From Bacteroidota bacterium (GTDB lineage Bacteria; Bacteroidota; Bacteroidia; Chitinophagales; LD1): a stretch of DNA of 64,000 bases. Under the pieces are notes generated by a model. The model had not been told where the DNA came from and did not search any database. It worked only from the letters and a program-made list of their open reading frames with translations. Positions 14,686 to 51,426 of this stretch are shown here, one piece after another. The position numbers were made by a program, and so were the translations under genes. The stretch lies in assembly GCA_947479455.1 (NCBI GenBank), contig CANJZE010000001.1:109106-173105 (forward strand), read 5' to 3'. Position 1 is the first letter of the stretch. The number at the start of each line of letters is the position of its first letter.

Positions 14686-14727
14686 TTTTGTATTTCTATT
14701 CGAATCCTTTCCTTTCGGAAGGGAGGA
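14686..14727 (-). repeat. junction hairpin element, copy H
   Basis: Minus-sense tcc-TCCCTTCC-gaaa-GGAAAGGA-ttcgaatagaaatacaaaa, lying between the stop codon (14738) and the terminator. Confidence 0.6.
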
Positions 14728-14737
14728 CGATTTGTTT

Positions 14738-16345
14738 TTACATCTTCACCAATCTTTTCTTCATATTGATATTGCCGGCTATAATTTCAGCTACATAAAC
14801 ACCATTTGGCATTTGGCTCATATCTATAGTTTTGTTTTGCACTTGGTTGATTTCGCTTACCAAACTTCCGTTAGCGTTGTAAATGTTTACTCGGTCAATA
14901 GTGGAACCATTGGCTTCAATAAACAATTTATTTGAAGTTGGATTTGGATATACATCCATTGTTATGCTATGGTTTGTTTCTTCAACCCCTGCAACAGTAG
15001 CTGCATCTAATTTCACCATCCAGTAATCAGAACTTCCAGCCGAACCGTGGTGATTGGTTACATCGCCATCAAACGAATAACTTCTTCCGGCTAAAGCATA
15101 TCCTCCATCCGCAGTTTTTACAATAGCGTTACCCAAATCTTGGCTGGTTCCGCCAAAGGTTTTTGAATATTCCAATGCACCATGCTGACGCAACTTAACT
15201 ACTAAGAAATCATATAGCCCGTGATTACCTGTTACATCGCCATCATTAGAGTTAGAGTAACCGGCAACCATATAACCACCATCTGCGCACTGCACGATTG
15301 ATGAAGACTCATCGCCACCGCTTCCGCCTACAGATTTTTGCCATTCAAGAATTCCCGTTCTATCCATTTTTACTGCCCAAAAATCGCGTGCACCGTGGTT
15401 TACGGTTACATCGCCATCCATAGAACTTGATTGACCAGTCATGGCATAACCGCCTTCTGCTGTTTGAATAATACAAGCTGCATTGTCGTAGTTGCTTCCA
15501 CCAAATGTTTTCTCAAATTCCATTACCCCAACATCGCTTAGTTTTACTACCCAGGCATCTACATTCCAAGTTATACCATGATGACTACTTACATCACCAT
15601 CGGTAGAAGAAGTAGTTCCTGCAATTATGTATCCACCATCGGTAGATTGGGCAATTGAATAACCTTCGTCAATATCGCTACCGCCCAAAGATTTTTGCCA
15701 ATCAATTAAACCAATGCTGTTTAATTTCACCATCCAGCAATCGTTTTCGCCATGCGCTGCAGTAATGTCGCCATCACTTGAGCGCGATAGCCCTACAATA
15801 GCATATCCTCCATCATTGGTTTGAATAATAGAGTATGCCTGGTCAACACCGGAGCCACCTAAAGAACGTTGCCATTCTAAAGTTCCTGTGCTGCTTAGTT
15901 TCACAATCCAATAATCGCTTTCGCCATTATTACCGGTTACATCACCGGTTTGAGAATCTGAATTACCCGCAAGTACATAACCACCATCGGCAGTTTGAAC
16001 AATTGCATAAGCCAAATCATTGCCTTCGCCACCAAATGACTTTTGCCATTCCATAGTACCTGCGCTGTTACGCTTGGTTACCCAGTAGTCGCTTCCACCG
16101 TGGTTGCCGGTTACTTCGCCACTGGTTTCATCGCTGCTGCCAACAAGGGCATAACCCCCATCGGTAGTTTGAATGATTGAATACGCATCATCGCTACCAT
16201 TTCCACCCATAGCTTTTTGCCATTGTGTTGCCGGTACCTGTGCGGTTGCTGCAACGGTAGTTGCACATGCTACAATAAAAGGAAGCAGTTTTTTGCTGAA
16301 GCCTTTTTCTGTTGCTTTGAAAAATTGTTTAAAATTCGTTTTCAT
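14738..16345 (-). CDS. secreted repeat (propeller-like) protein with T9SS type A C-terminal sorting domain
   Basis: Signal peptide. Seven to eight ~50-aa repeats (WQKSxGG..D.AYSIIQT.DGGY...G.S.S.DGDVT..HG..D.W.VKL). C-terminus VYPNPTSNKLFIE...PNGVYVAEII... Confidence 0.85.
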   Translation of the reverse strand: MKTNFKQFFKATEKGFSKKLLPFIVACATTVAATAQVPATQWQKAMGGNGSDDAYSIIQTTDGGYALVGSSDETSGEVTGNHGGSDYWVTKRNSAGTMEWQKSFGGEGNDLAYAIVQTADGGYVLAGNSDSQTGDVTGNNGESDYWIVKLSSTGTLEWQRSLGGSGVDQAYSIIQTNDGGYAIVGLSRSSDGDITAAHGENDCWMVKLNSIGLIDWQKSLGGSDIDEGYSIAQSTDGGYIIAGTTSSTDGDVSSHHGITWNVDAWVVKLSDVGVMEFEKTFGGSNYDNAACIIQTAEGGYAMTGQSSSMDGDVTVNHGARDFWAVKMDRTGILEWQKSVGGSGGDESSSIVQCADGGYMVAGYSNSNDGDVTGNHGLYDFLVVKLRQHGALEYSKTFGGTSQDLGNAIVKTADGGYALAGRSYSFDGDVTNHHGSAGSSDYWMVKLDAATVAGVEETNHSITMDVYPNPTSNKLFIEANGSTIDRVNIYNANGSLVSEINQVQNKTIDMSQMPNGVYVAEIIAGNINMKKRLVKM

Positions 16346-16676
16346 GATGTTTGTTTTTTGTTACCTACTCGTGTTCCAGCTTTTCGGTTTCCGCTGTTTG
16401 TGCTTCTTATTCTGCTTTTTGCTCTTTCAAGTTTCAATTCAAACCGTCTATTGAACAGGTAATAACTTGTTAGATAAAACACAATGCGTGTATTGTAAGA
16501 AAAGTGATGTATTCTGTGTACATCTTGTGTAGTGATACGAGGTATTGTGCAGGCGCGATAATCTGTTTGTTAAGTCGCGGAACTTTACCATTCGCAGGTT
16601 TAGAGGCGAAACCCTGCGGAGACAATAGGGGGTAAAAGAAAATCTGGGCTACTTAGTCGAAGTCATCATTATGCTC

Positions 16677-17843
16677 CTAATCTGTAATCACCTTCACCTT
16701 CTTCGCCAAATCAATGGCTTTTTGTTTCACAACATTTACATCGCTGCCAATTTCGTCATAGGCAAGCACCACCGCCATTCTGCGGTAAGGGCGGGTTGTA
16801 GGTTTTCCGAAAATGCGAATATCGGTTCGAGGGTCTTTGATGGCTTCTTCCACTCCTCTATAGATAGGATGCTTTCCTTCCTTATCTGCAAGCACCACCG
16901 CGCTTGCTCCTACTTTTAGCAAAACAATTTCGGGAATAGGAAAACCAAGAACAGCACGTGCATGCAATTCAAACTCTGAAAGATTTTGTGTGCCGGCAAG
17001 AGTAACCATGCCGGTATCGTGCGGACGAGGAGAAAGCTCACTGAAATAAACGCCATCATCGGCTAAGAAAAATTCAACGCCCCATATTCCCGCACCCGTT
17101 AAAGCAAGGGTAACCTGCGCGGCAATTTGCTGCGCTTCCTGTAAATGCGCAGAGCTCATTTCACAAGGCTGCCAGCTTTCCTGATAGTCGCCTCGCTCCT
17201 GTCGGTGACCTATAGGGGGGCAGAAAAGGGTTTCGCCCTTCTTCTGCGTAACCGTAAGCAATGTAATTTCAGTATGAAATTTTACAAATGCTTCTACAAT
17301 TACTTCGACAATATCACCCCGTTTCCCGCTTTGCGAATAGTTCCATGCCTTTTCAATTTCATCTTCGGTCTTTATAGTTGATTGTCCTTTGCCGCTCGAG
17401 CTCATAAGGGGTTTTACTACACAAGGAATGCCCACTTCTTTCACTGCGGTTTTCAATTCTTCGAGTGTAGTAGCGTAACGGTAGTTGGCGGTTTTTAATC
17501 CGAGTTCTTTTGCCGCTAAATCTCGAATGGCTTTTCGGTTCATGGTAAAGTTTGCAGCGCGGGCAGAAGGCACTACCTGAATGCCGTCCTTTTCATAGTC
17601 ATAAAAACGCTCGGTGCGTATAGCTTCTATTTCAGGAACAATAATATCGGGTTGGTGTTTGGCAACTATTGCATCGAGCGCGTTGCCATCGAGCATATTA
17701 ATGACTTCGCGTTCATCGGCTACTTGTTGTGCAGGTGCATCGTTATAGGAGTCAACGGCTATTACATATTGCCCTAGTCGCTTGGCGGCAATTACAAATT
17801 CCTTTCCCAGTTCTCCGCTGCCCAGCAGCATAATTTTTTTCAT
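16677..17843 (-). CDS. purT: formate-dependent phosphoribosylglycinamide formyltransferase (GAR transformylase 2)
   Basis: [34 protein letters not shown]-terminus, ATP-grasp core, 388 aa. Confidence 0.9.
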
Positions 17844-17904
17844 GTTCTGAATTTATAAGCTTGAATAAAAAATTATTACTTCGTGCTGCAAAATAAAAAA
17901 GCAC

Positions 17905-18228
17905 ATGCAAGACGACAAAGTGTTGTTTACCGAAAAAGTTCCCGCAGGAAAAAGAACCTACTTTTTAGATGTAGTAGAAAATTTCAAAGGTCACAAGTAT
18001 TTAAAATTTACCGAAAGCCGCGCCAATGACGGGCAATACATTCGTCAAAGCGTGCGCATTTTTCAAGAAGATTTTGATAAAATCTTCACCGCATTCGACA
18101 GCATAAAAGGATTCTTAGCTGCTAATCATGTTCCTGTAGCTCCACCAGTGAGAGAAGAAAAGAAGGAAGAAAGAGATGATAGCGGTGCAGAAAAGAAGAA
18201 TGAAGACTACGGTGACCTTAGTTTTTAG
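17905..18228 (+). CDS. DUF3276 / PUR-alpha-like nucleic-acid-binding protein
   Basis: VLFTEKVPAGKRTYFLDVVENFKGHKYLKFTESR pattern with a charged C-terminal tail. Confidence 0.75.
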   Translation: MQDDKVLFTEKVPAGKRTYFLDVVENFKGHKYLKFTESRANDGQYIRQSVRIFQEDFDKIFTAFDSIKGFLAANHVPVAPPVREEKKEERDDSGAEKKNEDYGDLSF

Positions 18229-18775
18229 CCGTTAACCAACTGGGCACTGTAATGCGAATGTTGGTCATTCGCCCTTTCACCGTTACATCCTTCTTTCCAT
18301 CCGAAGGATATCCCCAACTGCGTAATTTGCAATCATAATCACCCGAGAGGCGAAAATGTTTCTTGTCCGTTTCCCAATCAAATTGAGTAATGTTCAACTT
18401 GCTTTGCTCTTTAATAATATAGTAGTTAGTGCTTTGATACTGCAATGCCACAGCAAAAAGTTGAGGCGCACCTAATTTTTCAGGCTCATAAGAAATTTCA
18501 AACTGAACAGACTCAGAAAACATTTTTCCATCGGGCAAATCATAATTTAATCCATTGAAAGTAGTACTGATAACGGTGCGCGGTGTACTTCTACCATCCA
18601 TAGATCCGGCTTTGTTCATAGCCAAACCACGAAACAATTGGTCATCGCGCAGCTTAAACATTTTACCATCAACGGTGGCAAAAAAGGTACCCTTGTCTTT
18701 ATCGTCATCTTCCAAACCAGAACCCGGCAAAGAAGCAAAAGCAAAGAATAAAATAGTTGCTGTAAGTAATTTCAT
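18218..18775 (-). CDS. hypothetical secreted protein
   Basis: Internal Met gives signal peptide MKLLTATILFFAFASLPGSG. No recognisable domain. Confidence 0.55.
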   Translation of the reverse strand: MKLLTATILFFAFASLPGSGLEDDDKDKGTFFATVDGKMFKLRDDQLFRGLAMNKAGSMDGRSTPRTVISTTFNGLNYDLPDGKMFSESVQFEISYEPEKLGAPQLFAVALQYQSTNYYIIKEQSKLNITQFDWETDKKHFRLSGDYDCKLRSWGYPSDGKKDVTVKGRMTNIRITVPSWLTAKN

Positions 18776-18997
18776 AGCGGGCGCGAATTTAGCCGAATGT
18801 GCCAAAACATCAAGCCTTGCCTGATGAAGGACCGAGTCAATATAGAAGCGGATACATGGTTTGTCAAGTGCTCAGCAAATCTTTTTTTCATTTCAGTTCA
18901 TTATTAAACCGTTTCAGTTTGCAAGGCGAACGGGTGGCTACTAAATAATTGCGCGGCATGGTTTCTCTTCTTTCATTTGCCCCGCAAACAAATTCGT

Positions 18998-20116
18998 ATG
19001 AACAAGAAATTTTTTTTCGCCATTCCAGTAACAGCCGTTGTCATTGCCGCAGTTGGTTTTGCTTCGTGCAACAAAACAAAAACCATAAAGCCCGAGCGCA
19101 AAGCCATTACCGAAGCTGTTTATGCTTCCGGCTTTTTAGTGCCAAAGAATGAGTACAAAGTTTTTTCGCTTAGCGATGGTTACATCGTTTCAAAAACCAA
19201 AGAAGGTGGCGATGATGTAAAACGCGGTGAAGAGATTTACAAAATTCAGAACGATGCCAGCGGAGCAAAGCTCGGTGCCAGCACATCGGCTTATGATTTA
19301 GCAAAGTTGAACGCCTCCGATAATTCTCCGGTGCTGCTCGATTTGAAAAACAAAATAAAAAGTGCCGAAGCCAAATTCAAAAACGACTCAACAAATTTTG
19401 TCCGCTACAAAAACATGTTCGATGCACAGGCAGTAACCAAAGGACAGTTCGATCAAATTGCCCTGGCTTATGATATTTCTTCGAACGATTTAAAATCATT
19501 GAACGAAAATTTCAGAAGAACGAAAGACCAATTGCAAGTGGAGATGAAGAATGCGCAAAGCGTGGTAGCAGCTTCTAATCTCGACTTCGGAAATTATTCT
19601 ATACGCAGTGTAATGGATGGAATGGTTTATGAAACCTATAAAGATTTAGGTGAAGCGGTACGCAGAACAGAACTCGTTGCAGTTGTTGGCGCGAAAGGCG
19701 CAAAGCTTTTAGAACTAAGCGTTGACCAGCAGGATATTGACAAAGTAAAAATTGGTCAGGAAGTAATTGTAAAAATGGATGTGAGCGGAAGCAAAACCTA
19801 CAGCGCAAAAGTGAGCAAGATTTATCCGAACATGAATCAACAAGACCAAAGCTTTAAAGTAGAAGCAGAGTTTTCAGAGAACTGCGAAATGAATTTTGTG
19901 CATACATCGGTTGAGGCGAACATCATTATTGCGCATAAAGATAGCGCGCTCATTATTCCTAAAAATGTTATTCAGGCAAACGATGAAGTGGAAATAAAAT
20001 CATTGGGCATGAACCAAAAAGTAAAAATCAAAAGGGGCTTAGAAAATCTGGAGTATGTAGAAGTAGTGGAAGGTATTAAGGCAGAAGATGAAGTAGTGAT
20101 TCCTAAACTGAAATAA
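18998..20116 (+). CDS. HlyD/MacA-type periplasmic adaptor (membrane fusion) lipoprotein
   Basis: ATG at 18998 gives MNKKFFFAIPVTAVVIAAVGFASC (lipobox). Coiled-coil middle and beta-barrel C-terminus. First gene of the ABC operon. Confidence 0.75.
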   Translation: MNKKFFFAIPVTAVVIAAVGFASCNKTKTIKPERKAITEAVYASGFLVPKNEYKVFSLSDGYIVSKTKEGGDDVKRGEEIYKIQNDASGAKLGASTSAYDLAKLNASDNSPVLLDLKNKIKSAEAKFKNDSTNFVRYKNMFDAQAVTKGQFDQIALAYDISSNDLKSLNENFRRTKDQLQVEMKNAQSVVAASNLDFGNYSIRSVMDGMVYETYKDLGEAVRRTELVAVVGAKGAKLLELSVDQQDIDKVKIGQEVIVKMDVSGSKTYSAKVSKIYPNMNQQDQSFKVEAEFSENCEMNFVHTSVEANIIIAHKDSALIIPKNVIQANDEVEIKSLGMNQKVKIKRGLENLEYVEVVEGIKAEDEVVIPKLK

Positions 20117-20122
20117 ACAAGT

Positions 20123-20161
20123 CCCCTAACATACGTGGGGGAACTAAACTCAAATACTAAA
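20123..20161 (+). repeat. junction hairpin element, copy A (proximal arm decayed)
   Basis: CCCCtaa-catacgt-GGGGG-aactaaactcaaatactaaa, followed directly by ATG 20162. Confidence 0.6.
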
Positions 20162-21037
20162 ATGGGAAACACAATAAGTAAATTCGATTGGCTAGATAGA
20201 AACGAGTATCCGTTTAACCATAACTATCTGACGGTTGATGGAAAGCGGATGCATTACATTGATGAAGGCTCTGGCGAAGTTGTTTTATTTGTGCACGGTA
20301 CTCCATCATGGAGTTTCGATTTTAGAGAACAGATAAAAACTATTAGTAAAACTCATCGTTGTATTGCTGCTGACCATATTGGTTTTGGTTTAAGCGACAA
20401 GCCTGAAAATTATGGTTACTCTACAAAGCAACATTCCAAAAATTTAGAGTCTTTTATTAATCATCTTCAACTTGATAATATTACACTGGTAGTGCACGAT
20501 TTTGGCGGACCAATAGGTTTAAACTATGCCATTTATCATCCGCAAAAAATTAAACAACTGGTAGTTTTAAATACCTGGCTTTGGTCAACACGCAACGAAT
20601 CGGAATACAAACAGGCGGAGATGATTTTGAAATCTCCTTTGCTTCCGGTGTTATATAAATATTTCAATTTCTCTGCAAGGTTTTTAGTGACACAGAGTTG
20701 GGGAAACAAAAAAACATTAACAAAAGAAATTCATAAGCACTATTTAAAACCGTTTTCGAAACCAAGCGAAAGAATGGGAACAATAGCTTTTGCAAAATCG
20801 CTGTTAAACGATCAGGATTGGTTCGAAGAATTGTGGAGCAAGGTTGATGTTCTTACTGGTAAGCCCACGCTATTTATCTGGGGGAAGCTCGATAAATTTA
20901 TGCCTCTGAAATTTTTGGAAAAGTTTCTCACTAAATTTAAGCATGCACAAACAGCTCAAGTAAGCGCAGGCCATTTTTTGCAGGATGAAGCAGCGGCTGA
21001 AGTTACAGCTCAACTCAATTTATTTCTCACCCAATGA
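20162..21037 (+). CDS. alpha/beta hydrolase, haloalkane dehalogenase/epoxide hydrolase-like (Asp nucleophile)
   Basis: VLFVHGTPSWSFDF and VVHDFGGPIG motifs. ATG 20162 is preferred because the tracked GTG 20135 lies inside repeat A. Confidence 0.75.
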   Translation: MGNTISKFDWLDRNEYPFNHNYLTVDGKRMHYIDEGSGEVVLFVHGTPSWSFDFREQIKTISKTHRCIAADHIGFGLSDKPENYGYSTKQHSKNLESFINHLQLDNITLVVHDFGGPIGLNYAIYHPQKIKQLVVLNTWLWSTRNESEYKQAEMILKSPLLPVLYKYFNFSARFLVTQSWGNKKTLTKEIHKHYLKPFSKPSERMGTIAFAKSLLNDQDWFEELWSKVDVLTGKPTLFIWGKLDKFMPLKFLEKFLTKFKHAQTAQVSAGHFLQDEAAAEVTAQLNLFLTQ

Positions 21038-22290: not shown

Positions 22291-22297
22291 AAACCAA

Positions 22298-22337
22298 GCC
22301 CCCTAACCCCCGAAGGGGGAACTAAAGACAAATACAT
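22298..22337 (+). repeat. junction hairpin element, copy B1
   Basis: gCCCCCtaa-CCCCCgaa-GGGGG-aactaaagacaaatacat. Its first 24 nt are identical to copy D. Confidence 0.75.
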
Positions 22338-22343
22338 ATCTGT

Positions 22344-23084
22344 ATGGACGATTCAAATAAATATGACAAAACTAAAGCCTCCCTTTCGGGGAGGTTTGGA
22401 GGGGCTACTGTTTTATCTGCCCGTAATCTTTCTAAATCATTTTACGAGCCAGAAGAGTTTCAGGTGCTTAAGAATGTTTCGTTCGATGTGCAGAAAGGAG
22501 AGTTTGTTTCTATCGTTGGTAAAAGCGGTTGCGGTAAATCTACCTTACTCTATTTGATTTCTACACTCGACACCGAATACAAAGGAGAAATTTTTATGAA
22601 CGAAAAGAAGGTAACCGGGCTTTCGCAAAATGAACTTGCACACTTTCGCAACGAACACATCGGTTTCGTTTTTCAATTTCATTTTCTTCTTCCTGAATTT
22701 TCGGCACTTAAAAACGTAATGTTGCCCGCTGAAAAACTGGGCAAGTATTCAAAGAGTGAATGCGAAGACCGCGCTTATGAAAAACTGAAATGGCTCAACA
22801 TGGATAAGTTTGCATTGAAACTTTCTTCTAAACTTTCGGGCGGTCAACAACAGCGCGTGGCTATTGCACGTGCACTAATTAACGACCCTACCATTATGAT
22901 GGGCGATGAACCCACAGGTAACCTAGATTCCACTAACACCGATATTGTTTTTGATATTCTGAAAGATTTATGCAAGAGCAAAGGACAAACAATTATTTCG
23001 GTAACCCACGATACCGAGTTTGCTCAAAAGAGCGATAGAATTATTGAAATGAAAGACGGTGAAATTGTAAAGCATGAAGGTTAA
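22344..23084 (+). CDS. ABC transporter ATP-binding protein (MacB/LolD-like)
   Basis: Walker A GKSGCGKST, signature LSGGQQQRVAIARAL, Walker B IMMGDEPT. The N-terminal ~22 aa are encoded by repeat sequence. Confidence 0.9.
   Translation: MDDSNKYDKTKASLSGRFGGATVLSARNLSKSFYEPEEFQVLKNVSFDVQKGEFVSIVGKSGCGKSTLLYLISTLDTEYKGEIFMNEKKVTGLSQNELAHFRNEHIGFVFQFHFLLPEFSALKNVMLPAEKLGKYSKSECEDRAYEKLKWLNMDKFALKLSSKLSGGQQQRVAIARALINDPTIMMGDEPTGNLDSTNTDIVFDILKDLCKSKGQTIISVTHDTEFAQKSDRIIEMKDGEIVKHEG
22371..22404 (-). repeat. junction hairpin element, copy B2 (inverted orientation, inside the ABC ATPase ORF)
   Basis: Plus strand actaaag-CCTCCC-tttcg-GGGAGG-ttt-GGAGGGG. The reverse complement has the family architecture CCCCTCCaaa-CCTCCCcgaaa-GGGAGG. 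Confidence 0.55.
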
Positions 23085-32443: not shown

Positions 32444-34021
32444 ATGAACATTACAGCCCTACAAATTCTCGAATCTATTCCATCGCGCTTTCGTGCAGAG
32501 AAAGCGCAGAACTATTCTGCTGTTTTTCATTTTGAAATTAGCGGAGAAGAAACTCTTCAATACACGGTTACCATTCAGAATGCGAAATGCGATTTGCAGA
32601 AAGGGCTAAACGGCAAAGCCGATTGCACGATTAAAACCCGCGCCAGTGTTTATGTGGATTTAGAAACCGGAAAAACAAATCCGCAAATGGCTTTGATGAT
32701 GGGGAAAATAAAGGTTAGCAACCTCGCTGCCATGATGCAGTTTGCAAAGTGTTTTAGAAAGTGCAGCCCCACCCAAACCCTCCCCGAAGGGAAGGGCTTT
32801 AAAAACAGCCAAACACAAGTGGTAAACAGGGCAACAAAAACTGGTCCGCTGGCGGGAGTAAAGATTATTGATTTCACACGTTTGCTTCCGGGGCCTATTG
32901 CTACTATGTTTTTGGCAGATATGGGTGCCGATGTGATTAAAGTAGAAGACCCCGATAACCCTGATTACATCCGCAGTTTTGAGCCCCGCATCAATGGCAT
33001 TAGTATGCTTTATCTTGCGTTGAATAGAAACAAAAGAAGCCTGGCGCTCAATTATCTTTCTGCCGAAGGCAAGCAAATTATTTATGATTTAATAAAGACA
33101 GCCGATGTGGTGATTGAACAATACCGCCCCGGTGTGATGAAGGATTTGGGATTTGGTTATGAAGAACTGGCGAAGCTGAATTCGAAACTGATTTATGTTT
33201 CGGTGACGGGTTATGGACAACATTCGAGCAAGGCGATGGATGCGGGGCACGATTTGAATTACATAGCTATTGCGGGTGCACTAGGCATAACGGGTAACGC
33301 AAATGAAATTACGATACCGGGTTTTCAACTGGCGGATATTGCAGGTGGTGGTTATATGGCTATGAACGCGGTGACGGCTGCGCTTTACCAACGCGAGCGA
33401 ACAGGCAAGGGCGAGTGGATAGATGTGAGCATGACCGATGCGGCTGTGCCTTTTACCGCTTTGCAGTTTGCGTATCATCAAGGCACAAAGAATAATTTGA
33501 CGCGGGGCACATTTGAATTGAGCGGGGCGATGCCGAATTACAATGTGTATAAATGCAGTGATGAGAAGTTTGTAGCACTTGGAAGTTTGGAGCCAAAGTT
33601 CTGGGGAAAGTTTTGCGCTAAAGTTGGAAAGGCTGTATGGAACGATATGTTCTTATCGCAAGGTGAGGCATTGGAGAAACTCAAAAAAGAAGTAGCAGAA
33701 TTATTTTTGACGAAGACGAGAAGCCAGTGGCTCGAGGAATTTAAGCACGAAGATTTTTGTTTTACTACGATTAACGATTTGAGTGAAATAGAGCAGGATG
33801 TTTTTTTGAATGAGCGCCAGATGTTTAGTGAAAATGAGCACCCCGCAGCCGGTAAATACAAAACGATTAATCAGCCGCTCAAGTTTTTGCAAAATGATTT
33901 TTACAATAATGAAAGCGCGCCCGATTTAGGTGATGATACGGCCGCTATACTTGGGGAGTTAAATTATGATTCAGACAGAATAAGTGGACTGAAGAACAAA
34001 AATGTGGTGAAGATTAACTAA
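32444..34021 (+). CDS. SCP2 domain fused to a family III (CaiB/BaiF/AMACR-type) CoA-transferase
   Basis: N-terminal SCP2 (..KTNPQMALMMGKIKVSNLAAMMQFAKCF), a repeat-encoded linker, then LAGVKIIDFTRLLPGPIATMFLADMGADVIKVE and the rest of a CoA-transferase III fold. Confidence 0.85.
   Translation: MNITALQILESIPSRFRAEKAQNYSAVFHFEISGEETLQYTVTIQNAKCDLQKGLNGKADCTIKTRASVYVDLETGKTNPQMALMMGKIKVSNLAAMMQFAKCFRKCSPTQTLPEGKGFKNSQTQVVNRATKTGPLAGVKIIDFTRLLPGPIATMFLADMGADVIKVEDPDNPDYIRSFEPRINGISMLYLALNRNKRSLALNYLSAEGKQIIYDLIKTADVVIEQYRPGVMKDLGFGYEELAKLNSKLIYVSVTGYGQHSSKAMDAGHDLNYIAIAGALGITGNANEITIPGFQLADIAGGGYMAMNAVTAALYQRERTGKGEWIDVSMTDAAVPFTALQFAYHQGTKNNLTRGTFELSGAMPNYNVYKCSDEKFVALGSLEPKFWGKFCAKVGKAVWNDMFLSQGEALEKLKKEVAELFLTKTRSQWLEEFKHEDFCFTTINDLSEIEQDVFLNERQMFSENEHPAAGKYKTINQPLKFLQNDFYNNESAPDLGDDTAAILGELNYDSDRISGLKNKNVVKIN
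32767..32818 (+). repeat. junction hairpin element, copy G, in frame inside the SCP2-CoA-transferase ORF
   Basis: CCCCACCCaaa-CCCTCCCCgaa-GGGAAGGG-ctttaaaaacagccaaacacaa, followed by in-frame GTG 32819. Confidence 0.7.
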
Positions 34022-39782: not shown

Positions 39783-39827
39783 CCTCTCCCAACCCTCTCC
39801 GAAGGAGAGGGCTTTAAAGACAAATAC
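39783..39827 (+). repeat. junction hairpin element, copy C
   Basis: CCTCTCCCaa-CCCTCTCCgaa-GGAGAGGG-ctttaaagacaaatac, followed directly by ATG 39828. Confidence 0.75.
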
Positions 39828-41770: not shown

Positions 41771-41814
41771 GCCCCCTAACCCCCGAAGGGGGAATAAAGG
41801 CGAATACAAAATAC
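41771..41814 (+). repeat. junction hairpin element, copy D
   Basis: gCCCCCtaa-CCCCCgaa-GGGGG-aataaaggcgaatacaaaatac, followed directly by ATG 41815. Confidence 0.75.
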
Positions 41815-42732: not shown

Positions 42733-42765
42733 TTCTAACTTTCATTTTCAAACCAAAAATTTCTT

Positions 42766-43605: not shown

Positions 43606-43614
43606 AAATGAGAA

Positions 43615-43680: not shown

Positions 43681-43709
43681 AATGTTTTATAACCAATAAA
43701 ATAACGCGC

Positions 43710-45029
43710 ATGTCAGGATGGTCAACCACCACAAGTAATTTTTTCAATCGCTCCGTTGTTCCTCTTTTACTCATGACGCTTACTCCGCCATTCGCTATGT
43801 TGATGTGGCATACGAATGTTGAACTCAACGGTTCATTCATTTCGTTAGGCAATGAAATTTTAGAAAAAGGAATTATTCAAATCATCAAAGATGTTTGGTT
43901 GTCGCGCTTCTTTGGTTCAGTAATGGCGTGGAAGATGATTGGAATTTTTGCTGTGTTTCAATTGTTGCTGATGAAAATTTTGCCCGGCAAAAAATACAAA
44001 GGCAACATTACCGCTATGGGCAACGTGCCCGAATACATCGACAACGGACTTTTTTCTTACCTGCTTACGTTCGCTATCTATTTTTTCTGCTCGCTGTATC
44101 TTCAACTTTTTCCTGCAGGAATTATCTATCACCAGTTTGGCGATTTATTAGGCGCACTCAATTTCACCGCTTTGATTTTTTGTTTGTTCCTGTATGTGAA
44201 AGGAAGATTTTTTCCTTCATCAACCGATAACTCGCACACCGGCAATTTCATTTTCGATTACTACTGGGGCACCGAATTATACCCGCGCATTTTGGATTGG
44301 GATATAAAGCAGTTTACCAATTGCCGCTTTGGTATGACAGGCTGGTCGCTCGCTGTGGTATCGTTTGCCTTTGCTCAAAAAGAAATTTACGGCTCGGCAG
44401 ATTGGAGCATTATTATTTCTGCTGCCTTGCTCTTCATTTATCTGTTCAAGTTTTTTGTGTGGGAAAGCGGCTACATGAAATCAATGGATATTCAGGTTGA
44501 CCGCGCGGGTTATTATATCTGCTGGGGCTGTTTGGTTTGGGTGCCCGCCATTTATACTTCGCCCATCATGTTCATGGTCAATCATCCCATCGGTTTGAAC
44601 ATATTTTTTGCGGCATTAATTTTTATTCTTGGTTTCGTTTCTATCTGGTTGAACTATTGGGCCGATTATCAGCGGCAGGAAGTGCGCGCTAGCAATGGCA
44701 AAACAAAAATTTGGGGAAAAGAACCTGTGCTTATCAATGCAAGCTATGTTACCGAAACAGGAGAAAAGAAATCTAATTTACTATTGGCTTCCGGCTTTTG
44801 GGGCGTGGCTCGGCACTTTCATTACGTGCCCGAAATACTTGCTGCATTTTTCTGGAGTTGCGCAACAGGCTTCACCTTCTTCGCTCCTTTCTTTTATGTT
44901 CTATTTCTTACTGTTCTTCTCACTCACCGCGCGTTTAGAGATGACACCAAATGCAGAAATAAATATGGCGAAGACTGGAACAAGTACTGCGCCATCGTTC
45001 GTTACAAAATTATTCCGGGTATAGTGTAA
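43710..45029 (+). CDS. ERG4/ERG24-family sterol reductase homologue (7-dehydrocholesterol / C-14 / C-24(28) reductase-like), polytopic membrane protein
   Basis: LLASGFWGVARHFHYVPEILAAFFWS and C-terminal LLTHRAFRDDTKCRNKYGEDWNKYCAIVRYKIIPGIV family signatures. 439 aa, many TM segments. Confidence 0.75.
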   Translation: MSGWSTTTSNFFNRSVVPLLLMTLTPPFAMLMWHTNVELNGSFISLGNEILEKGIIQIIKDVWLSRFFGSVMAWKMIGIFAVFQLLLMKILPGKKYKGNITAMGNVPEYIDNGLFSYLLTFAIYFFCSLYLQLFPAGIIYHQFGDLLGALNFTALIFCLFLYVKGRFFPSSTDNSHTGNFIFDYYWGTELYPRILDWDIKQFTNCRFGMTGWSLAVVSFAFAQKEIYGSADWSIIISAALLFIYLFKFFVWESGYMKSMDIQVDRAGYYICWGCLVWVPAIYTSPIMFMVNHPIGLNIFFAALIFILGFVSIWLNYWADYQRQEVRASNGKTKIWGKEPVLINASYVTETGEKKSNLLLASGFWGVARHFHYVPEILAAFFWSCATGFTFFAPFFYVLFLTVLLTHRAFRDDTKCRNKYGEDWNKYCAIVRYKIIPGIV

Positions 45030-45035
45030 GAGCAA

Positions 45036-45917
45036 ATGAAAAAGAAACTCCTCATCACAGGTGCATCAGGCTTTCTCGGTTATCATGTATTGCGAGCCGC
45101 TGAAAACGATTGGGAAATATACGGCATCACCCACTCTAAAAATTTCAATTGCAAAAACGCCATTCCCATTTCCTGCGACATTCGCAACTACATTGAACTC
45201 GGCAACTTCATTGACGATATTGAACCCGATGCTATCATCCACACCGCGGCAATTGCCGATGCCAATTTTTGCGAACAGAACAAAGACTTGAGTTATGAAG
45301 TAAATGTAGAAGCCACCAAAAACTTAGCGGGCATTGGTGCCGATTACAATATTCCCTTTGCGTTTACTTCCACCGATTTAGCTTTTGATGGCGCGCAGGG
45401 CATGTATAAAGAAGACGCTCAAAAAAATCCTCTGAATGTTTATGGCGAACAAAAATCAATTGCCGAAGAAGAAGTGTTGCGCATTTATCCAAACGCCACA
45501 GTGTTTCGTTTACCGTTGATGTTCGGTGAACTCGAAGCAAGCCCGTCTAATTACTTGCAGAAATTTATTTCGCAAATAAAGAACGGAGAAAAAATCTCGC
45601 TCTTCCACGATGAATACAGAAGCGTATGCGGAGCAAAAAGTATAGCTAAAGGCATTTTGAAATTGCTGAACGAAAAAGGAATTATTCATTTAGCAGGAAA
45701 AGAAAAACTATCGCGTTATGAATTTGGTTTGAAAGCAGCCAAAGCATTTCAATTGAATGAAACACTACTACACTCCTGTTCGCAAAAAGATGTGAAGATG
45801 GCAGCCCCAAGACCTGCCGATGTATCGCTCGACATTTCAAAAGCAGTAAGTTTGGGCTTTGCTCCCTTGAACGCAGATGAAGAGTTGAAACTAATTGCCG
45901 ATAAAAAAATTATCTGA
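45036..45917 (+). CDS. extended SDR, RmlD (dTDP-4-dehydrorhamnose reductase)-like NAD(P)-dependent oxidoreductase
   Basis: ITGASGFLGYHV Rossmann motif, catalytic YGEQK. ~290 aa. Confidence 0.7.
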   Translation: MKKKLLITGASGFLGYHVLRAAENDWEIYGITHSKNFNCKNAIPISCDIRNYIELGNFIDDIEPDAIIHTAAIADANFCEQNKDLSYEVNVEATKNLAGIGADYNIPFAFTSTDLAFDGAQGMYKEDAQKNPLNVYGEQKSIAEEEVLRIYPNATVFRLPLMFGELEASPSNYLQKFISQIKNGEKISLFHDEYRSVCGAKSIAKGILKLLNEKGIIHLAGKEKLSRYEFGLKAAKAFQLNETLLHSCSQKDVKMAAPRPADVSLDISKAVSLGFAPLNADEELKLIADKKII

Positions 45918-46949
45918 GTGAAACATTCCCTTTCTATTTTCTGCCTGTTGTTCTTCTGCCTGCTAAATGCACAAAGTCAACACCAACCCTTCGATCGAAT
46001 TTTAAATCCGAGCCGTGTTATTTTTTACAACGTAGAAAATTTGTTCGATACGATTGATAATCCTGAAACGAATGATGCCGAATATCTTCCTACTTCAAAG
46101 AGTGAATGGAATACAAAGAAGTATCAGATAAAACTAAAACACACAGCAAAAACGCTTGCGGCTTTGCTCGATACCATTCAACCATTAGTAATTGGCTTAA
46201 GCGAAATTGAAAACAAAAAAGTGTTGGAAGATTTACTGGGGCAGCCGGATCTAAAGAAATTTAACTTTGGTATAGTACATCGCGACTCGCCCGATGAAAG
46301 AGGAATTGATTGCGCCATTCTTTACAACAAAGATGCGCTCAACGAATCATTCTCTGCTTTTATTCCAATCAATTTCCCCTTCGACCCGGGTGATGGGACC
46401 CGTGAAATTGTTTACCTCAAAGGTTATATCAACGAAGGTGAGCCTATTTGGTTTTTTGTAAATCACTGGCCCAGCCGCTTAGGAGGAAAAGAAAAAAGTG
46501 ATGCGAAGCGCGCGTATGTAGCGCAAGTGCTCAAAGACAAAATCGAAAATATTTACCTCGGTGAAAAGTATGCACGCATAGTAGTGATGGGCGATTTCAA
46601 CGATAATCCAAACGATTCTAGTTTATCAATTCTTTCGGTGGTGAAGAAAAAATCAAGAGCGGAGTTGATGATCAATTTGATGAAACCGCTTACAGGGCGA
46701 AATGAATTCTCACTTCGTTATAAAGCAGAGAATGACATCTTCGACCAGTTTATTGTTTCGCAAAATTTGCTCGACAGGAAGAATCCATATTACATGCGAT
46801 TAGATGGTGCACACATTTTCAATCCGCCTTTCCTTTTGTATAATGATCCTAAGTATGGCTTAGTCCCCAGTCGCACTTTTGCAAGAGGTAGATGGGTGGG
46901 CGGTTACAGCGACCACTTGCCAGTATATTTTGACATTACTTTTAGATAA
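45918..46949 (+). CDS. endonuclease/exonuclease/phosphatase (EEP) family protein, secreted
   Basis: GTG start overlapping the upstream stop. Signal peptide. FYNVENLFD, GLSEIEN, MGDFNDNP, YSDHLPV motifs. Confidence 0.75.
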   Translation: MKHSLSIFCLLFFCLLNAQSQHQPFDRILNPSRVIFYNVENLFDTIDNPETNDAEYLPTSKSEWNTKKYQIKLKHTAKTLAALLDTIQPLVIGLSEIENKKVLEDLLGQPDLKKFNFGIVHRDSPDERGIDCAILYNKDALNESFSAFIPINFPFDPGDGTREIVYLKGYINEGEPIWFFVNHWPSRLGGKEKSDAKRAYVAQVLKDKIENIYLGEKYARIVVMGDFNDNPNDSSLSILSVVKKKSRAELMINLMKPLTGRNEFSLRYKAENDIFDQFIVSQNLLDRKNPYYMRLDGAHIFNPPFLLYNDPKYGLVPSRTFARGRWVGGYSDHLPVYFDITFR

Positions 46950-46976
46950 GTAAACCTCATACCTATGAGATTCTTT

Positions 46977-47393
46977 TTAAGCCGGATACTCAAAATAATT
47001 TCTCTCAGTTTCCCAAAGGCGAACCTGTAAATCGTATTTCGCATCAATTTTTGCTCGAAGCAGATTATAGATGACTACCACAATATTTTCTCCGGTGGGA
47101 TTGAGGTCTTTGAATTCAGGGCAATCTAAGTTGAGGTTCCTATGATCAAAGCGTTTGTGCACTTGGTGCTGAATAATTGTTTTGACTTCATTCAAATCAA
47201 TCACGTATCCTGTTTCAGGATTTATTTCACCGGTAATTTTTACATCTAAACGATAGTTGTGACCGTGGAAATTTTCATTGGCACACAATCCGAACACTTC
47301 TTTGTTTTTTTCATCGCTCCAGTCTTTGCGAAAAAGTTTGTGAGCGGCATTGAAAGTTACTTTGCGAAAGACAGAAACTCTTGGGTGGGACAT
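46977..47393 (-). CDS. queD: 6-carboxy-5,6,7,8-tetrahydropterin synthase
   Basis: 138 aa with FNAAHKL and CANENFHGHNY (Cys/His zinc and catalytic motif). Confidence 0.85.
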   Translation of the reverse strand: MSHPRVSVFRKVTFNAAHKLFRKDWSDEKNKEVFGLCANENFHGHNYRLDVKITGEINPETGYVIDLNEVKTIIQHQVHKRFDHRNLNLDCPEFKDLNPTGENIVVVIYNLLRAKIDAKYDLQVRLWETERNYFEYPA

Positions 47394-47431
47394 AATTATT
47401 TAGATGATGAAGGTTGAAGGGCAAAGGTGTG

Positions 47432-47451
47432 AAAAAAATCTGCAAGCAGAT
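47432..47451 (-). terminator. weak intrinsic terminator after the methyltransferase gene
   Basis: Minus-sense atctgc-tt-gcagat followed by T7. The stem is short, so confidence is low. Confidence 0.4.
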
Positions 47452-47515
47452 AATATAAGGAAGCCGCTATCCAACCTACTAACTTGCTGAAATGGATTTC
47501 AACAGCAACAACAAA

Positions 47516-47558
47516 TTAGAAGCTTGTATTAAATTCCCCTTTAGGGGATTTAGGGGTC
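47516..47558 (-). repeat. junction hairpin element, copy F (forms the last 13 codons and stop of the methyltransferase ORF)
   Basis: Minus-sense aCCCCTaaat-CCCCTaaa-GGGG-aatttaatacaagcttcTAA. The 22-nt core is identical to copy E. Confidence 0.75.
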
Positions 47559-48721
47559 ATCAATCTTTCCAACTCATGCTGTTCAATACCGAAAAGCATT
47601 TTTAAACTTTTTACTTGTTCCAAAATTTCTTGCCGAAGAACTTTTTCTGTGCTTGTTTTTACACCAACTATCAAAATATTTTTTGGCGTGTGTTCCGTTG
47701 AAATAAATTCAAACACTTTTGTTTTGTAGCCGTGCGCTTCTAAAATAAGGGCGCGAATAGTATCGGTAAGAATTTCAGCTTGCCGCTCTTCGAGAATTCC
47801 AAATTGCGTAATAGCTTTTAAATCATTAGCCGGCTGAATTTGTTTGCGAATTTGTTTATGGCAACAAGGCGCGCAGATAATCACTCTGGCTTCCGCTTTT
47901 ATTCCGCGGTAAATTGCCTGGTCTGTGGCAGTGTCGCAGGCGTGCAATGCAATCAGCATATCTGTAACTGGCAATTCAGCGGTATCAATAGAACCGGTTT
48001 GGAAATTCAGTTTTACGAAGCCTGCTTTCTGCGCAATTTGATTGCAGGTATCCACCAAATTCTGTCGCATTTCAATGCCAGTAATTTGCGGACTAAGATT
48101 TAAAACATTAGTGAGGTAATCATACAAAGCAAAAGTGAGATAACCTTTCCCCGCACCCATGTCGGCAATTTGAAAATTAGCGGGCAACGCAGCCGATTCA
48201 ACAATGCTCTCCACAATTTCTACATACTTATTTATTTGCCGAAACTTATCCTGCTTATCGCTCTTTACTTTTCCTTCGGCAGAAGCAATACCAAGTTCAC
48301 GCAAATAAATATTGTTCTCCGTTTTTACATATCGCTTCCTGGCTTTGTCGTGCTCGGTAGAAGGCGGCTCAGTGATTCCTGCCGACTTTTGTGTGAGAAT
48401 TGTTTTACCGCTTTTCATAATCGTTAGATGAAAATCTTTTGCAGTAGTAAACAAGTCAGCTTTAAAAAAATCTTTGTCGAGCATGTGTTGAAGCGTGGTG
48501 ATTGCTTCGGCCACCCCATAGTTTTTGGTAACGTCCTTAGTGGGATAACGATACACAAACGAAAGATTGAATCCAGATTTTAGTTGAACAGGTTTTACAA
48601 AAACATTTTTGAGTTCGTTGCTTTTGTAGCGTCTGTCGCTAAGCGTAAGTTTTATGAATTGATTTTGAGAAACACTTTCCCGCAGAGAAGAGAAAAATAT
48701 TTCTGTATCATTTATTTGCAT
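47516..48721 (-). CDS. class I SAM-dependent methyltransferase (large, N-terminal extension domain)
   Basis: IADMGAGKGYLTFAL SAM-binding motif I. 401 aa. The C-terminal TPKSPKGEFNTSF is repeat-encoded. Confidence 0.75.
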   Translation of the reverse strand: MQINDTEIFFSSLRESVSQNQFIKLTLSDRRYKSNELKNVFVKPVQLKSGFNLSFVYRYPTKDVTKNYGVAEAITTLQHMLDKDFFKADLFTTAKDFHLTIMKSGKTILTQKSAGITEPPSTEHDKARKRYVKTENNIYLRELGIASAEGKVKSDKQDKFRQINKYVEIVESIVESAALPANFQIADMGAGKGYLTFALYDYLTNVLNLSPQITGIEMRQNLVDTCNQIAQKAGFVKLNFQTGSIDTAELPVTDMLIALHACDTATDQAIYRGIKAEARVIICAPCCHKQIRKQIQPANDLKAITQFGILEERQAEILTDTIRALILEAHGYKTKVFEFISTEHTPKNILIVGVKTSTEKVLRQEILEQVKSLKMLFGIEQHELERLMTPKSPKGEFNTSF

Positions 48722-48843
48722 GCGGCAATTTTAGGGAAGTTAAAATGGAAAGCAGAAAAAACTCTGTTGCAACTCTTTTATGTATGGATTAAACTTATTT
48801 CTTTAGTGCCTGACACACATTAATGAAATAAATTTTACCGCTT

Positions 48844-49713
48844 ATGCGCCAGCTTAAGATTACTAAGAGCATCACCAATCGTGAGAGTGCTTCACTAGAA
48901 AGGTATTTACAGGAAATTAGTCGTGTTGAATTGATTACTGCCGAAGAGGAAGTTCAATTAGCGCGAAAAATTAAAACAGGCGACACCAACGCACTTGAAA
49001 AATTGACGAAAGCAAATTTGCGTTTCGTGGTTTCAGTAGCCAAGCAATATCAAAACCAAGGGCTCACACTTCCCGATTTAATTAACGAAGGAAATTTGGG
49101 TTTAATAAAAGCTGCTGAACGATTTGATGAAACACGCGGCTTCAAGTTTATTTCTTACGCGGTGTGGTGGATTCGTCAAGCTATTATGCAAGAGTTAGCA
49201 GAACAATCGCGCATTATTCGTTTGCCATTAAACAAAGTAGGCGCATTGAATAAAATCAACAAAGCATTTGTGCAGCTTGAACAGGAGTTTGAACGCGAAC
49301 CAACGCCAGAAGAATTAGCAAGCTTGTTGAATATTGAAATAGATGAAGTGCGCGCCACTATTGGTGTTGCAGGCAGGCATGTGTCAATGGATGCGCCATT
49401 TGTAAAAGGTGAAGAAAATTCGTTACTCGATGTGTTGGAAAATTCTCATGCAGAAGCTACAGATAAGCAAGTAACGTTCAGCGAATCATTGCGCTGCGAA
49501 ATTGAACGAACCCTTACTACCCTAAGCGGGCGGCAAGCCGAAGTAGTAAAACTTTTTTTCGGTATTGGGTTGGAAGAGCCCATGAGTTTAGATGATATAG
49601 GCAATCGTTTTGACCTCACACGCGAACGTGTTCGGCAAATAAAAGACAAGGCCTTACTACGATTGAAATCATCTTCGCGTTGCAAGCATTTAAAGTCTTA
49701 CCTCGGCACTTAA
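48844..49713 (+). CDS. rpoD: primary RNA polymerase sigma factor (short Bacteroidota RpoD/SigA)
   Basis: Region 2 [27 protein letters not shown] and region 4.2 [15 protein letters not shown]. 289 aa. Confidence 0.92.
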
Positions 49714-49724
49714 ATCTGTAGCAG

Positions 49725-50078
49725 CTAAAAGGTAAATTCCTTAGGCGCGAGTTTTATTTTTCTATCACCTTTGCTCAACATTATTTCGTCAAAAACAAGT
49801 TTGTCCCCTTTAGCAGCTCGCGAAATAAACGAACGAAGTTGAGGCGAGAAAAGCACATCGGGTCTTCCGCCCATCTTAAAAATTTCTCCCTTTGTAGTAA
49901 AAACAACTTCATAAGAAATCACTTTGTATGCAGTAGGCAATGCAAGTGCTTCTTCAATCGTTTTAAATTTTAAAAAAGAAGTATCAATCGGTAAATTTTT
50001 CGTATCCGCTTTAGCAACCTGCGCAACAGAAATAAAATAGAAGAAACAGAAAGCAACAAGAGTGATAGCTTTTTTCAT
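49725..50078 (-). CDS. hypothetical small secreted protein
   Basis: Signal peptide MKKAITLVAFCFFYFISVAQ. No recognised domain. Confidence 0.5.
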   Translation of the reverse strand: MKKAITLVAFCFFYFISVAQVAKADTKNLPIDTSFLKFKTIEEALALPTAYKVISYEVVFTTKGEIFKMGGRPDVLFSPQLRSFISRAAKGDKLVFDEIMLSKGDRKIKLAPKEFTF

Positions 50079-50166
50079 TGCACTAAATTTTAGTAATTAC
50101 CTAAAATTAAAAGATTGAAGTCGGTTTTGCCTGAAAAATTATTTTCGCAGTACTAAAAAATGAATC

Positions 50167-51387
50167 ATGAGTTTGAAAACAGTAGAACACTTCAACTTTG
50201 CAGGAAAGCGCGCTTTAGTTCGAGTAGACTTTAATATTCCGCTCGATAAACAGTACAACATTACAGATGATAGCCGTATTCGCGGAGCAGTTCCTACCAT
50301 TCAAAAAATTTTGAAAGATGGCGGAAGCGTTGTGCTGATGAGTCACCTTGGAAGACCGTTGAAAAAGCTGAAAGAAGATGGCACGGTTGACTTTGCAAAG
50401 CACACCCTGAAACATGCCGTAAAGAGAAGTTCGGAACTACTTGGTGTGGATGTAAAATTTGTGGCTGATTGTATGAGCGATGAAGCGTTTGCACTTTCGT
50501 CTTCAATAAAAGCGGGAGAAGTTTTGTTGCTGGAGAATCTTCGCTTTTATAAGGAAGAAGAAAAAGGTGATGCCACATTTGCAGAAAAACTTTCGAAGCA
50601 TGGTGATGTTTATGTGAACGATGCTTTTGGAACTGCGCATCGTGCACATGCTTCTACCACCATTGTTGCCAATTATTTTTCGGAGCAGAATAAAATGTTC
50701 GGTTACCTGATGGCCAATGAAGTAACAAGTGCTGAAAAAGTTTTGAAGAGCGGAGATGTGCCCTTCACGGCCATTCTTGGCGGAGCAAAGGTGAGTGACA
50801 AAATTCTAATCATCGAAAACCTGTTAGACAAAGCCAACAATATTTTGATTGGAGGCGGCATGGCTTATACTTTTTTTAAAGCGATGGGAGGTAAAATCGG
50901 AAACAGTTTAGTGGAAGAAGACAAACTCGAACTCGCGCTTCAGCTCATTGAAAAAGCAAAGTCGAAAAATGTAAATCTACTTTTACCGGTTGACAGTGTG
51001 ATTGCCGACAAGTTTGATGCTACTGCAAATACTTCTACAGCAAACAGCAATGAAATTGCTGATGGCTGGATGGGATTAGACATTGCAAACAATGCGATTT
51101 ATGATTTCACGCAAGTCATTCTTTCTTCCAAAATAATTTTGTGGAATGGTCCCATGGGTGTTTTTGAAATGGAGAAATTTCAACACGGCACAAAAGCAAT
51201 TGCAGAAGCAGTAGCATTGGCTACTTCAAAAGGTGCTTTTAGTTTAGTTGGTGGTGGCGATAGTGTTGCAGCCGTTCATAAATTTAATTTGGCTGATAAA
51301 GTGAGTTACGTTTCTACAGGTGGTGGTGCTATGCTCGAATATTTTGAAGGGAAAGAATTGCCGGGGATTAAAGCGATTAACCCCTAA
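50167..51387 (+). CDS. pgk: phosphoglycerate kinase
   Basis: [25 protein letters not shown] and GGGDS motifs. The stop codon lies inside repeat E. Confidence 0.95.
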
Positions 51388-51426
51388 ATCCCCTAAAGGG
51401 GACTTGAATACAAAATACAAGTAAAC
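51381..51426 (+). repeat. junction hairpin element, copy E
   Basis: CCCCTaaat-CCCCTaaa-GGGG-acttgaatacaaaatacaagtaaac. The first TAA is the pgk stop codon. Confidence 0.75.

Follow-up and report, generated by a model that had tools for sequence, protein, structure and literature searches.

The closest described relatives of the element reported here are the repeats of Escherichia coli known as BoxC, PIT or TM_ECO, a motif reportedly attributed also to Hoyne and Maher in 2000. The three names cover a single pattern, CCCTCNCCC-N3-6-GGGNGAGGG-N3-GGGNGAGGG[GTC-], always intergenic, located 10-310 nt from open reading frames (ORFs), with neither a strand bias nor a favoured distance to the ORF; TM_ECO oligonucleotides form a triplex in vitro as single-stranded DNA, according to circular dichroism and nuclear magnetic resonance, and PIT elements show neither promoter nor terminator activity (PMC4666352). 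Intrastrand triplex motifs have been defined under the name ITxF by a stem of 6-15 nt in which no more than one mismatch is tolerated beyond a length of 7 nt, loops of 1-6 nt, and the block order pyrimidine arm, purine arm, (reverse-)Hoogsteen arm or, on the complement, Hoogsteen, pyrimidine, purine (Holder et al. 2015). The present analysis concerns a family of short interspersed repeats found in a 64,000-nt stretch of DNA from an uncultured Bacteroidota bacterium (Chitinophagales; genome assembled from metagenomes; contig CANJZE010000001.1, positions 109,106 to 173,105), referred to hereafter as the window. A first-pass annotation made from the letters alone had listed at least nine dispersed copies of the element; all nine were found where it placed them, seven of them full and two decayed (A and H). 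That annotation could assign the element to no named family, and the architecture is in fact that of the intrastrand triplex motif BoxC/PIT/TM_ECO (PMC4666352), of which the element appears, judging by its sequence, to be a Bacteroidota variant or counterpart. The reading that we prefer, with a probability of roughly 0.55, is that of a short interspersed repeat with an intrastrand triple-helix-motif core, which would fold on the G-rich strand when the DNA is single-stranded, would spread by template switching and would survive at harmless sites.

A three-block core with a mirror rule

Read in the sense of the flanking genes, the element consists of a third-strand block (Y1), a spacer of 2-3 nt (TAA, AA or AAA), the pyrimidine arm of a hairpin (Y2), a loop (GAA, GAAA or TAAA) and a purine arm (R). 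Both Y blocks are made of pyrimidines and R of purines, Y2 being the mirror image of Y1 and R the complement of Y2, and on the opposite strand the hairpin comes first and the purine third strand follows. The core measures 21-30 nt and is continued, in the clade of the window, by an A-rich tail, some 20 nt long, in which AATAC(A) occurs. A purpose-written three-block finder, controlled by shuffled and reversed sequence, was chosen because a covariance model cannot encode the parallel relation of a third strand. Applied to 3.0 Mb, it returned 362 matches to the three-block architecture against 9 in the reversed-sequence control; 51 distinct core types were counted, across which the mirror rule holds, and among asymmetric arms 34 were perfect mirrors and 3 perfect direct repeats. 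The three arms vary in step, as the first-pass annotation had claimed, and all three differ together at orthologous sites, but it took the upstream block for a direct duplicate of the 5' arm, whereas the block mirrors that arm. The rule is readily seen in ACCTCTCCCC-ctg-CCCCTCTCCA-ttc-TGGAGAGGGG, where the mirror agrees at 10 of 10 positions and the direct repeat at 7 of 10, and in the pairs ACCTCCCCC / CCCCCTCCA, CCTCCCCC / CCCCCTCC, CCCCCTC / CTCCCCC and, in window copy C, CCTCTCCC / CCCTCTCC. A mirror block runs parallel-complementary to the purine arm and is unable to form an alternative Watson-Crick hairpin; it has precisely the geometry called for by a third strand lying in the major groove.

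Within the 64 kb of the window, the strict finder recovered seven elements (B1, B2, C, D, E, F and G) and 50 shuffles gave 0.0, and a looser pattern, CCCNNNNNNCCCNGAARGG with at most one mismatch, gave 8 matches where 0.19 were expected. All the pyrimidine-arm/purine-arm hairpins detected in the window are among the listed copies. Together with the reversed-sequence control, these counts uphold the view of a genuine dispersed family rather than of low complexity. The block order of ITxF is followed by the seven full window copies and by the 362 matches over 3.0 Mb, and the triplet rule for its third block is followed in the mirror counts over the same sequence. Copies C (8 nt) and B2 (6 nt) lie within its size rule, whereas B1, D, E and F, with 5-nt arms, are too short, and copy G has one third-strand mismatch and one stem mismatch.

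The likeness to TM_ECO extends to several details: three blocks on one strand formed of a pyrimidine arm, a purine arm and a mirroring purine third strand; a G/C-rich composition; a second loop TTA (TAA on the C strand) with CCG/CGG variants; the occurrence as single copies or inverted pairs; and the gain, loss and mutation of copies among close relatives. In a Pedobacter sp. locus (L180, about 700-760), the copy CCTCACCC-taa-CCCTCTCC-tcaa-GGAGAGGG is close to the complement of TM_ECO no. 2, both loops included, and this near identity argues for the same repeat in two phyla. In the window the TM_ECO pattern itself has 0 matches, copy C (CCCTCTCC/GGAGAGGG) being close but shorter. The arms of the Bacteroidota element are of 5-8 nt, unlike the 9-nt arms of TM_ECO, the commonest type, C5, falling under the 6-nt floor of ITxF, and the clade-specific A-rich tail is a further difference.

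The departures from the rule are informative on the strand that would fold. In Y1, 28 of the 39 departures from the mirror are T to A, and the non-Watson-Crick pairs of the stem comprise 6 C.A and 0 T.G. Transposed to the G-rich strand, the first change places a T of the third strand opposite an A-T pair and the second is a G.T wobble. T.A-T is a canonical triplet of the purine motif. Both kinds of change would thereby make sense on the G-rich strand, and they would be defects on the C-rich strand. TM_ECO likewise has a T opposite an A-T pair in its third strand (GGGTGAGGG), and purine-motif triplexes do not form in RNA (PMC4666352), while RNA triple helices in cells are destabilised by two or more consecutive C.G-C triples (PMC7583470). 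The departures in Y1 and in the stem, with these two limits on RNA triplexes, favour a fold of the G-rich DNA strand, which is the template strand of the upstream gene.

Position, orientation and turnover

The exact core CCCCCTAACCCCCGAAGGGGG was present in more than 120 contigs among the matches listed from a species-level genome collection, nearly all of them from Bacteroidota (Flavobacterium, Lutibacter, Cytophagales, Sphingobacterium, Pedobacter, Prevotella and others), at loci that also hold many copies with other arms. A 28-nt unit is identical between classes of the phylum, and the consensus of 135 copies reads wAG-CCCCC...GGGGG-AAyT. The density is about 1 copy per 9 kb in the window, 1 per 55 kb in related Chitinophagales-like genomes and 1 per 84 kb in an unbiased sample of Bacteroidota. 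Unlike TM_ECO, which is not found on phages or plasmids, the element also occurs on viral contigs, 45 of which carry the exact core. Compared by BLAST with the records of cultured phages, the 32-nt unit had weak unrelated matches only, and PHROG annotation of the genes beside the viral copies (recombinase, primase, methyltransferase, portal) revealed no pattern.

A bias toward transcription separates the element from TM_ECO still further. Among hairpins with an upstream block, sense being defined as lying just 3' of a stop-to-stop ORF of at least 100 amino acids, sense outnumbered antisense 87:12, and 40:5 among the copies not used for fetching the loci; on viral contigs the ratio was 34:1. 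The element usually starts at -8 or 0-7 nt relative to the stop codon, or else its own TAA is the stop. The viral copies follow any of the three stop codons, with one T and then the core; the viral genomes are compact and hold at most 3 copies per 10 kb, every one in sense. In the window, 8 of the 9 copies are oriented along local transcription as judged on the ORF map, B2 being the exception already pointed out in the first-pass annotation, and the copies of both strands follow their genes, so that orientation tracks transcription and not replication. A spot check of four single TM_ECO copies in E. coli MG1655 was in accord with the published lack of bias, with one obeying the sense rule, one opposite to it, one between convergent and one between divergent genes. 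Inverted pairs at most 200 nt apart have their third-strand blocks outward in 70 cases and inward in 2, unlike most E. coli pairs (Table 1 of PMC4666352), in which these blocks point inward.

In some loci the element is associated with other repeats. Copies stand amid short tandem repeats of GGTTAGT type in five IMG/VR contigs (L276, L283, L298, L301, L316) and amid GGATTTAC[AG]GATTTAC repeats in Prevotellaceae (L011, L019). In five Flavobacterium loci (L001, L005, L013, L084, L111) a second hairpin, CCTATTAGGGGTAAATAGG, is joined to the C5 core, and its GGGG loop may be able to pair with the first C5 block; five species have this composite in antisense just 5' of the start codon (ATG) of a nucleotidyltransferase gene, and it occurs at unrelated sites too.

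Four copies of the window stand between a gene and a following start codon. Copy B1 (22299..22337, + strand) has Y1 CCCCC at 22299-22303, a TAA spacer, Y2 CCCCC at 22307-22311, a GAA loop, R GGGGG at 22315-22319 and a tail, AACTAAAGACAAATACAT, ending at 22337; it is found 8 nt past the stop codon of an FtsX-like gene (22290), and an ATG stands 24 nt further on, at 22344. Copy C (39783-39811, +) is formed of Y1 CCTCTCCC (39783-39790), AA, Y2 CCCTCTCC (39793-39800), GAA and R GGAGAGGG (39804-39811), and its tail, CTTTAAAGACAAATAC, ends at 39827, immediately before the next ATG (39828). Similarly, copy D (41772-41792, +; CCCCC-taa-CCCCC-gaa-GGGGG) runs through its tail, AATAAAGGCGAATACAAAATAC, to 41814, the next ATG (41815) being that of a PorP/SprF gene. 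Copy A (20123-20141, +; CCCC-taa-CATACGT-GGGGG) is degenerate, having lost its Y2 block in agreement with the first-pass annotation, which had described it as deprived of the proximal arm; its tail, AACTAAACTCAAATACTAAA, closely matches that of B1 and ends at 20161, before an ATG at 20162. The distance from the stop codon to the base of the hairpin is 11 nt in D, 16 nt in B1 and 20 nt in C, and a fixed spacing, as in a recoding-like geometry, was rejected on these values.

Two copies have the same core, CCCCT-aaa-TCCCC-taaa-GGGGA. Copy E occupies 51381-51402 (+), or 51381..51421 with its tail CTTGAATACAAAATACAAG, and contains the stop codon of the PGK gene (51385-51387). Copy F, at 47556 down to 47535 on the minus strand (47523..47556 with its tail ATTTAATACAAG), is inside the 3' end of a methyltransferase ORF (47516-48721, -) that reads through it; the terminator announced about 65 nt after this copy was not found by a consensus terminator scan. 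Copy H (14705-14727, -) is partial, with a hairpin TCCCTTCC-gaaa-GGAAAGGA containing one C.A pair and no third-strand block; element and tail (TTCGAATAGAAATACAAAAG) span 14685..14727 (-), and the terminator expected after it is there, in canonical form, at 14689-14658.

Copy G (32767..32796, +; CCCCACCC-aaa-CCCTCCCC-gaa-GGGAAGGG), which has an A in Y1 opposite a T-A pair and one C.A in its stem, sits in frame in the linker joining the SCP2 and CoA-transferase domains of a single protein. Copy B2 (22378..22404, -) is the inverted partner of B1; on the plus strand it reads CCTCCC-tttcg-GGGAGG-ttt-GGAGGG(G), hairpin first and purine third strand next, inside the 5' end of an ABC ATPase ORF, where it contributes the peptide ..ASLSGRFGGA... 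The ORF map thus agrees with the placement of G, B2 and F within ORFs in the first-pass annotation; its statement that all copies lie at gene boundaries fails for G, which is located in the variable linker of an ancestral SCP2 + CoA-transferase fusion.

The A-rich tail described by the same annotation is well supported: in 7 of the 9 copies an AATAC stands 15-70 nt past the first base of the element, the expectation per site being 0.07, and as it is present also after both decayed copies it belongs to the repeat. The AATAC tail is a clade-specific component of the repeat unit, spanning 16-24 nt up to the next ATG in A, B1, C, D and their clade relatives.

Orthologous junctions, whose comparison had been suggested in the first-pass annotation, differ in presence and absence of the element among close relatives; contigs sharing an identical protein (99.995-100% identity) were taken as the same genome and left out of this comparison. 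No element follows PGK in any of 80 relatives (site E). In L203, whose proteins are 93-99% identical, the junction of site C is empty (TAAgacaaaacATG) and at site D CCTCTCCC-aa-CCCTCTCC-gaa-GGAGAGGG replaces C5-taa-C5-gaa-G5 between homologous flanks, all three arms differing together from those of the window. At site G the element is restricted to the window lineage, relatives at 93-94% amino-acid identity having the same linker without it. The B1-ATG-B2 module is missing in the closest relatives, L241 and L242 (97-98%), whose ABC ATPase begins MSIVLSAKNL, and is found in L244, L248 and L253 (85-92%) with co-varying cores of the type CCCCT/TCCCC/GGGGA for B1 and TCTCCCC/GGGGAGA/AGAGGGG for B2, in which all three arms are altered. 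After the HlyD gene (site A), relatives display a full copy, hairpin-only copies or bare remnants, and the sequence of copy H is identical in L242. Such a pattern of birth, conversion and decay is what would be expected of a self-propagating or recombinogenic repeat, unlike a site-specific regulatory element, and the gain, loss and core swaps among close relatives fit the templated copying mechanism that the first-pass annotation had envisaged. With respect to miniature inverted-repeat transposable elements, the family has inverted pairs of fixed geometry, and filled versus empty sites give flanking repeats of 3-4 nt, possible by chance (CAG..CAG at G, AAG..AAG at B1, ACAA..ACAA at C). As evidence of a target-site duplication, repeats of this size were judged too short to be relied on.

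Some of the genes that harbour or adjoin these sites also vary. The fusion of SCP2 and CoA-transferase III (32444-34021, +) is ancestral, with a low-complexity in-frame linker that differs in every relative and is built of cagacaacagac-type repeats in the closest ones. The G-rich strand of B2 (22344-22410, +) encodes ..TKASLSGRFGGA.., an N-terminal extension of the ABC ATPase that is in frame in four genomes (the window, L244, L248 and L253) and lacking in the closest relatives. In the window and in some relatives, an alpha/beta-hydrolase gene (20135-21037, +) separates the HlyD-like gene from the FtsX-like one; the two closest relatives do not have it, HlyD being followed directly by FtsX.

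Possible origin and competing explanations

According to the triple-helix repeat reading introduced above, the relevant fold would be that of the G-rich DNA strand while single-stranded, through the purine motif, which would make it independent of pH. A polymerase would stall at this fold, and template switching or gene conversion would then spread, swap and delete cores, as has been proposed for TM_ECO. Copies would survive only where they do little harm, and compact junctions may offer a single such spot, past the stop codon and ahead of the A-rich region where initiation of the next gene takes place. Having the C-rich strand on the non-template side would keep G runs out of both the messenger RNA (mRNA) and the displaced strand, and the orientation bias would come from selection against G runs in these two places. 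In the transcript, the element would be merely a short GC hairpin. H-DNA resembles such a structure by its mirror-symmetric pyrimidine tract (Y1-spacer-Y2) and by the same base-triple rules. H-DNA requires only a mirror repeat in supercoiled duplex DNA, whereas the present element has a third complementary block on the same strand and would give a self-contained single-strand fold.

Several points weigh against this reading. We know of no mobilising enzyme, and the direct repeats flanking G, B1 and C are too short to count. The C5 arms, with 5 triplets, are shorter than any tested, and the count of C.A versus T.G that helps to designate the folding strand is small (6 to 0). The favoured strand is the template of transcription, and we infer its tie to the orientation bias. 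The core changes that preserve the structure at orthologous sites could stem from selection acting on the individual copies instead of from conversion. The sharp peak at 0-7 nt after all three stop codons, compact phage genomes included, would fit a translation-linked RNA function equally well or better. Finally, the E. coli triplex was undetected in vivo by dimethyl sulphate footprinting (PMC4666352), and the Bacteroidota element is known from sequence alone.

The explanation that survives best beside it, which we consider tentative and clearly the less probable of the two, is an RNA-level cis element: a hairpin just past the stop codon, possibly with a C+.G-C / U.A-U third strand, that would block 3' exonucleases, or else insulate cistrons from one another or couple them, the A-rich tail leaving the following start codon free of structure. 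It accounts for the sense orientation, for a start 0-7 nt past TAA, TAG or TGA, for the 16-24-nt tail before the next ATG, for the exclusively sense copies of compact viral genomes and for the retention of the triple architecture at orthologous sites although the cores change; moreover, a pyrimidine-motif RNA triplex is chemically possible in the sense orientation only (PMC4666352). An RNA-level element is less easily reconciled with its absence from most orthologous junctions (0/80 after PGK), with the decay of copies at old sites and with the position of B2, G and F inside ORFs or in antisense. The role put forward in the first-pass annotation, that of a processing or stability hairpin coupled to an unstructured initiation region, is conceivable, with the empty junctions and the decay of old copies speaking against any site-specific role. 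The T to A changes of Y1 would be mismatches in the RNA motif, runs of C.G-C are unstable in RNA at cellular pH (PMC7583470) and the PIT elements of E. coli have no terminator or promoter activity (PMC4666352). Nor does any copy match a family in Rfam, a search that the first-pass annotation had recommended and that covered the window and 16 loci at gathering scores, and 38 kb with E up to 5. The RNA-level explanation nevertheless keeps some weight because the sharp peak past any stop codon, in phage-like contigs too, is poorly explained otherwise.

In its strongest form, which we hold to be doubtful, a true mRNA triple helix would stand directly 3' of stop codons across Bacteroidota and their phages, acting on termination, reinitiation or 3'-end protection. 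The ENE/MALAT1 RNAs offer a possible parallel for such a reading, with a 3'-proximal hairpin and a third strand in the major groove. In ENEs, U.A-U triples clamp an A-rich 3' end, whereas the present element would require runs of C+.G-C, disfavoured at neutral pH, and to our knowledge no bacterial example of the ENE/MALAT1 type has been described. If this were true, bacterial mRNAs would have in it their first widespread triple-helix cis element, and the BoxC/PIT class would gain a function.

A REP/REPIN-type element moved as single-stranded DNA by a RAYT (HUH tyrosine transposase) seems unlikely, despite a general resemblance. REP, BIME and REPIN are also short extragenic palindromes; they often stand just past stop codons, form inverted doublets, differ from strain to strain and are occasionally found in frame within genes (for REPs, PMC6006769), and the present copies are short, hairpin-bearing, dispersed, gained and lost among relatives and often arranged in inverted pairs of fixed geometry (70 to 2). 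Bacteroidetes furthermore possess their own RAYT subclass, 2.6. The REPs published for this subclass (supplementary table) are, however, unrelated sequences, the GT[AG]G foot is absent from the consensus of 135 copies, the mirror block is foreign to the REP model, and REPs are species-specific whereas the present unit is common to the phylum, with 28 nt identical across its classes.

A hairpin switch, in which a single 3' arm would alternate between two 5' arms, was suggested in the first-pass annotation and is now very improbable. Only the homopolymeric C5 copies formally allow both pairings, and in these the distal pairing is the minimum-energy fold predicted by ViennaRNA, which covers the hairpin and not the triplex. 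Every asymmetric core has its distal block reversed, parallel-complementary to R and so incapable of antiparallel pairing with it, and the fold predicted for copy C uses the proximal arm only.

A chance low-complexity C/G run or an ordinary intrinsic terminator is the least credible origin of all: the arms are indeed simple sequence and the terminator scan picks up some copies that precede T-rich DNA in antisense, but shuffles yield 0.0-0.2 copies against 7 in the window, the reversed control 9 matches against 362, the consensus of 135 copies has AAyT and no T run after the hairpin, and copies sit between the cistrons of operons. The intrinsic terminator was rejected as a candidate because the scan detects these copies in antisense only, through the A-rich DNA upstream, with no general T run.

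Neighbouring features and significance

Two further features of the window deserve mention. A match to the Rfam family DUF805b RNA (16362-16397, -; 37.7 bits for a gathering score of 35.6) lies 17 nt upstream of an ORF (14738-16345, -) whose product has a type IX secretion sorting domain and does not belong to DUF805. At 43710-45917 (+), genes for an ERG4/ERG24-type sterol reductase and a 3-beta-HSD/epimerase share an operon with a PorP/SprF gene. Sterol-type enzymes are unusual in bacteria.

A full-text search of the literature for the literal sequences of the element retrieved no relevant paper, and no paper tying intrastrand triplex motifs to Bacteroidetes was found in the literature searched, where the positional and evolutionary properties of the Bacteroidota element are unreported. 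BoxC/PIT/TM elements have been known for about 25 years without a function, and no positional rule applies to them in E. coli. The three-way covariation of the Bacteroidota element, orthologous sites included, represents strong comparative evidence for a maintained triple-helix geometry, and its strict tie to the direction of transcription and to stop codons, which extends to phage-like contigs, leads to testable hypotheses, namely an RNA barrier, the avoidance of a G-rich non-template strand or targeted insertion. The elements also account for odd gene ends met in annotation, such as a stop codon that belongs to the repeat, a peptide inserted in frame or a new N-terminus. The quick gain, loss and swapping of cores at 93-99% protein identity makes this family a natural system for the spread of repeats without a known transposase.

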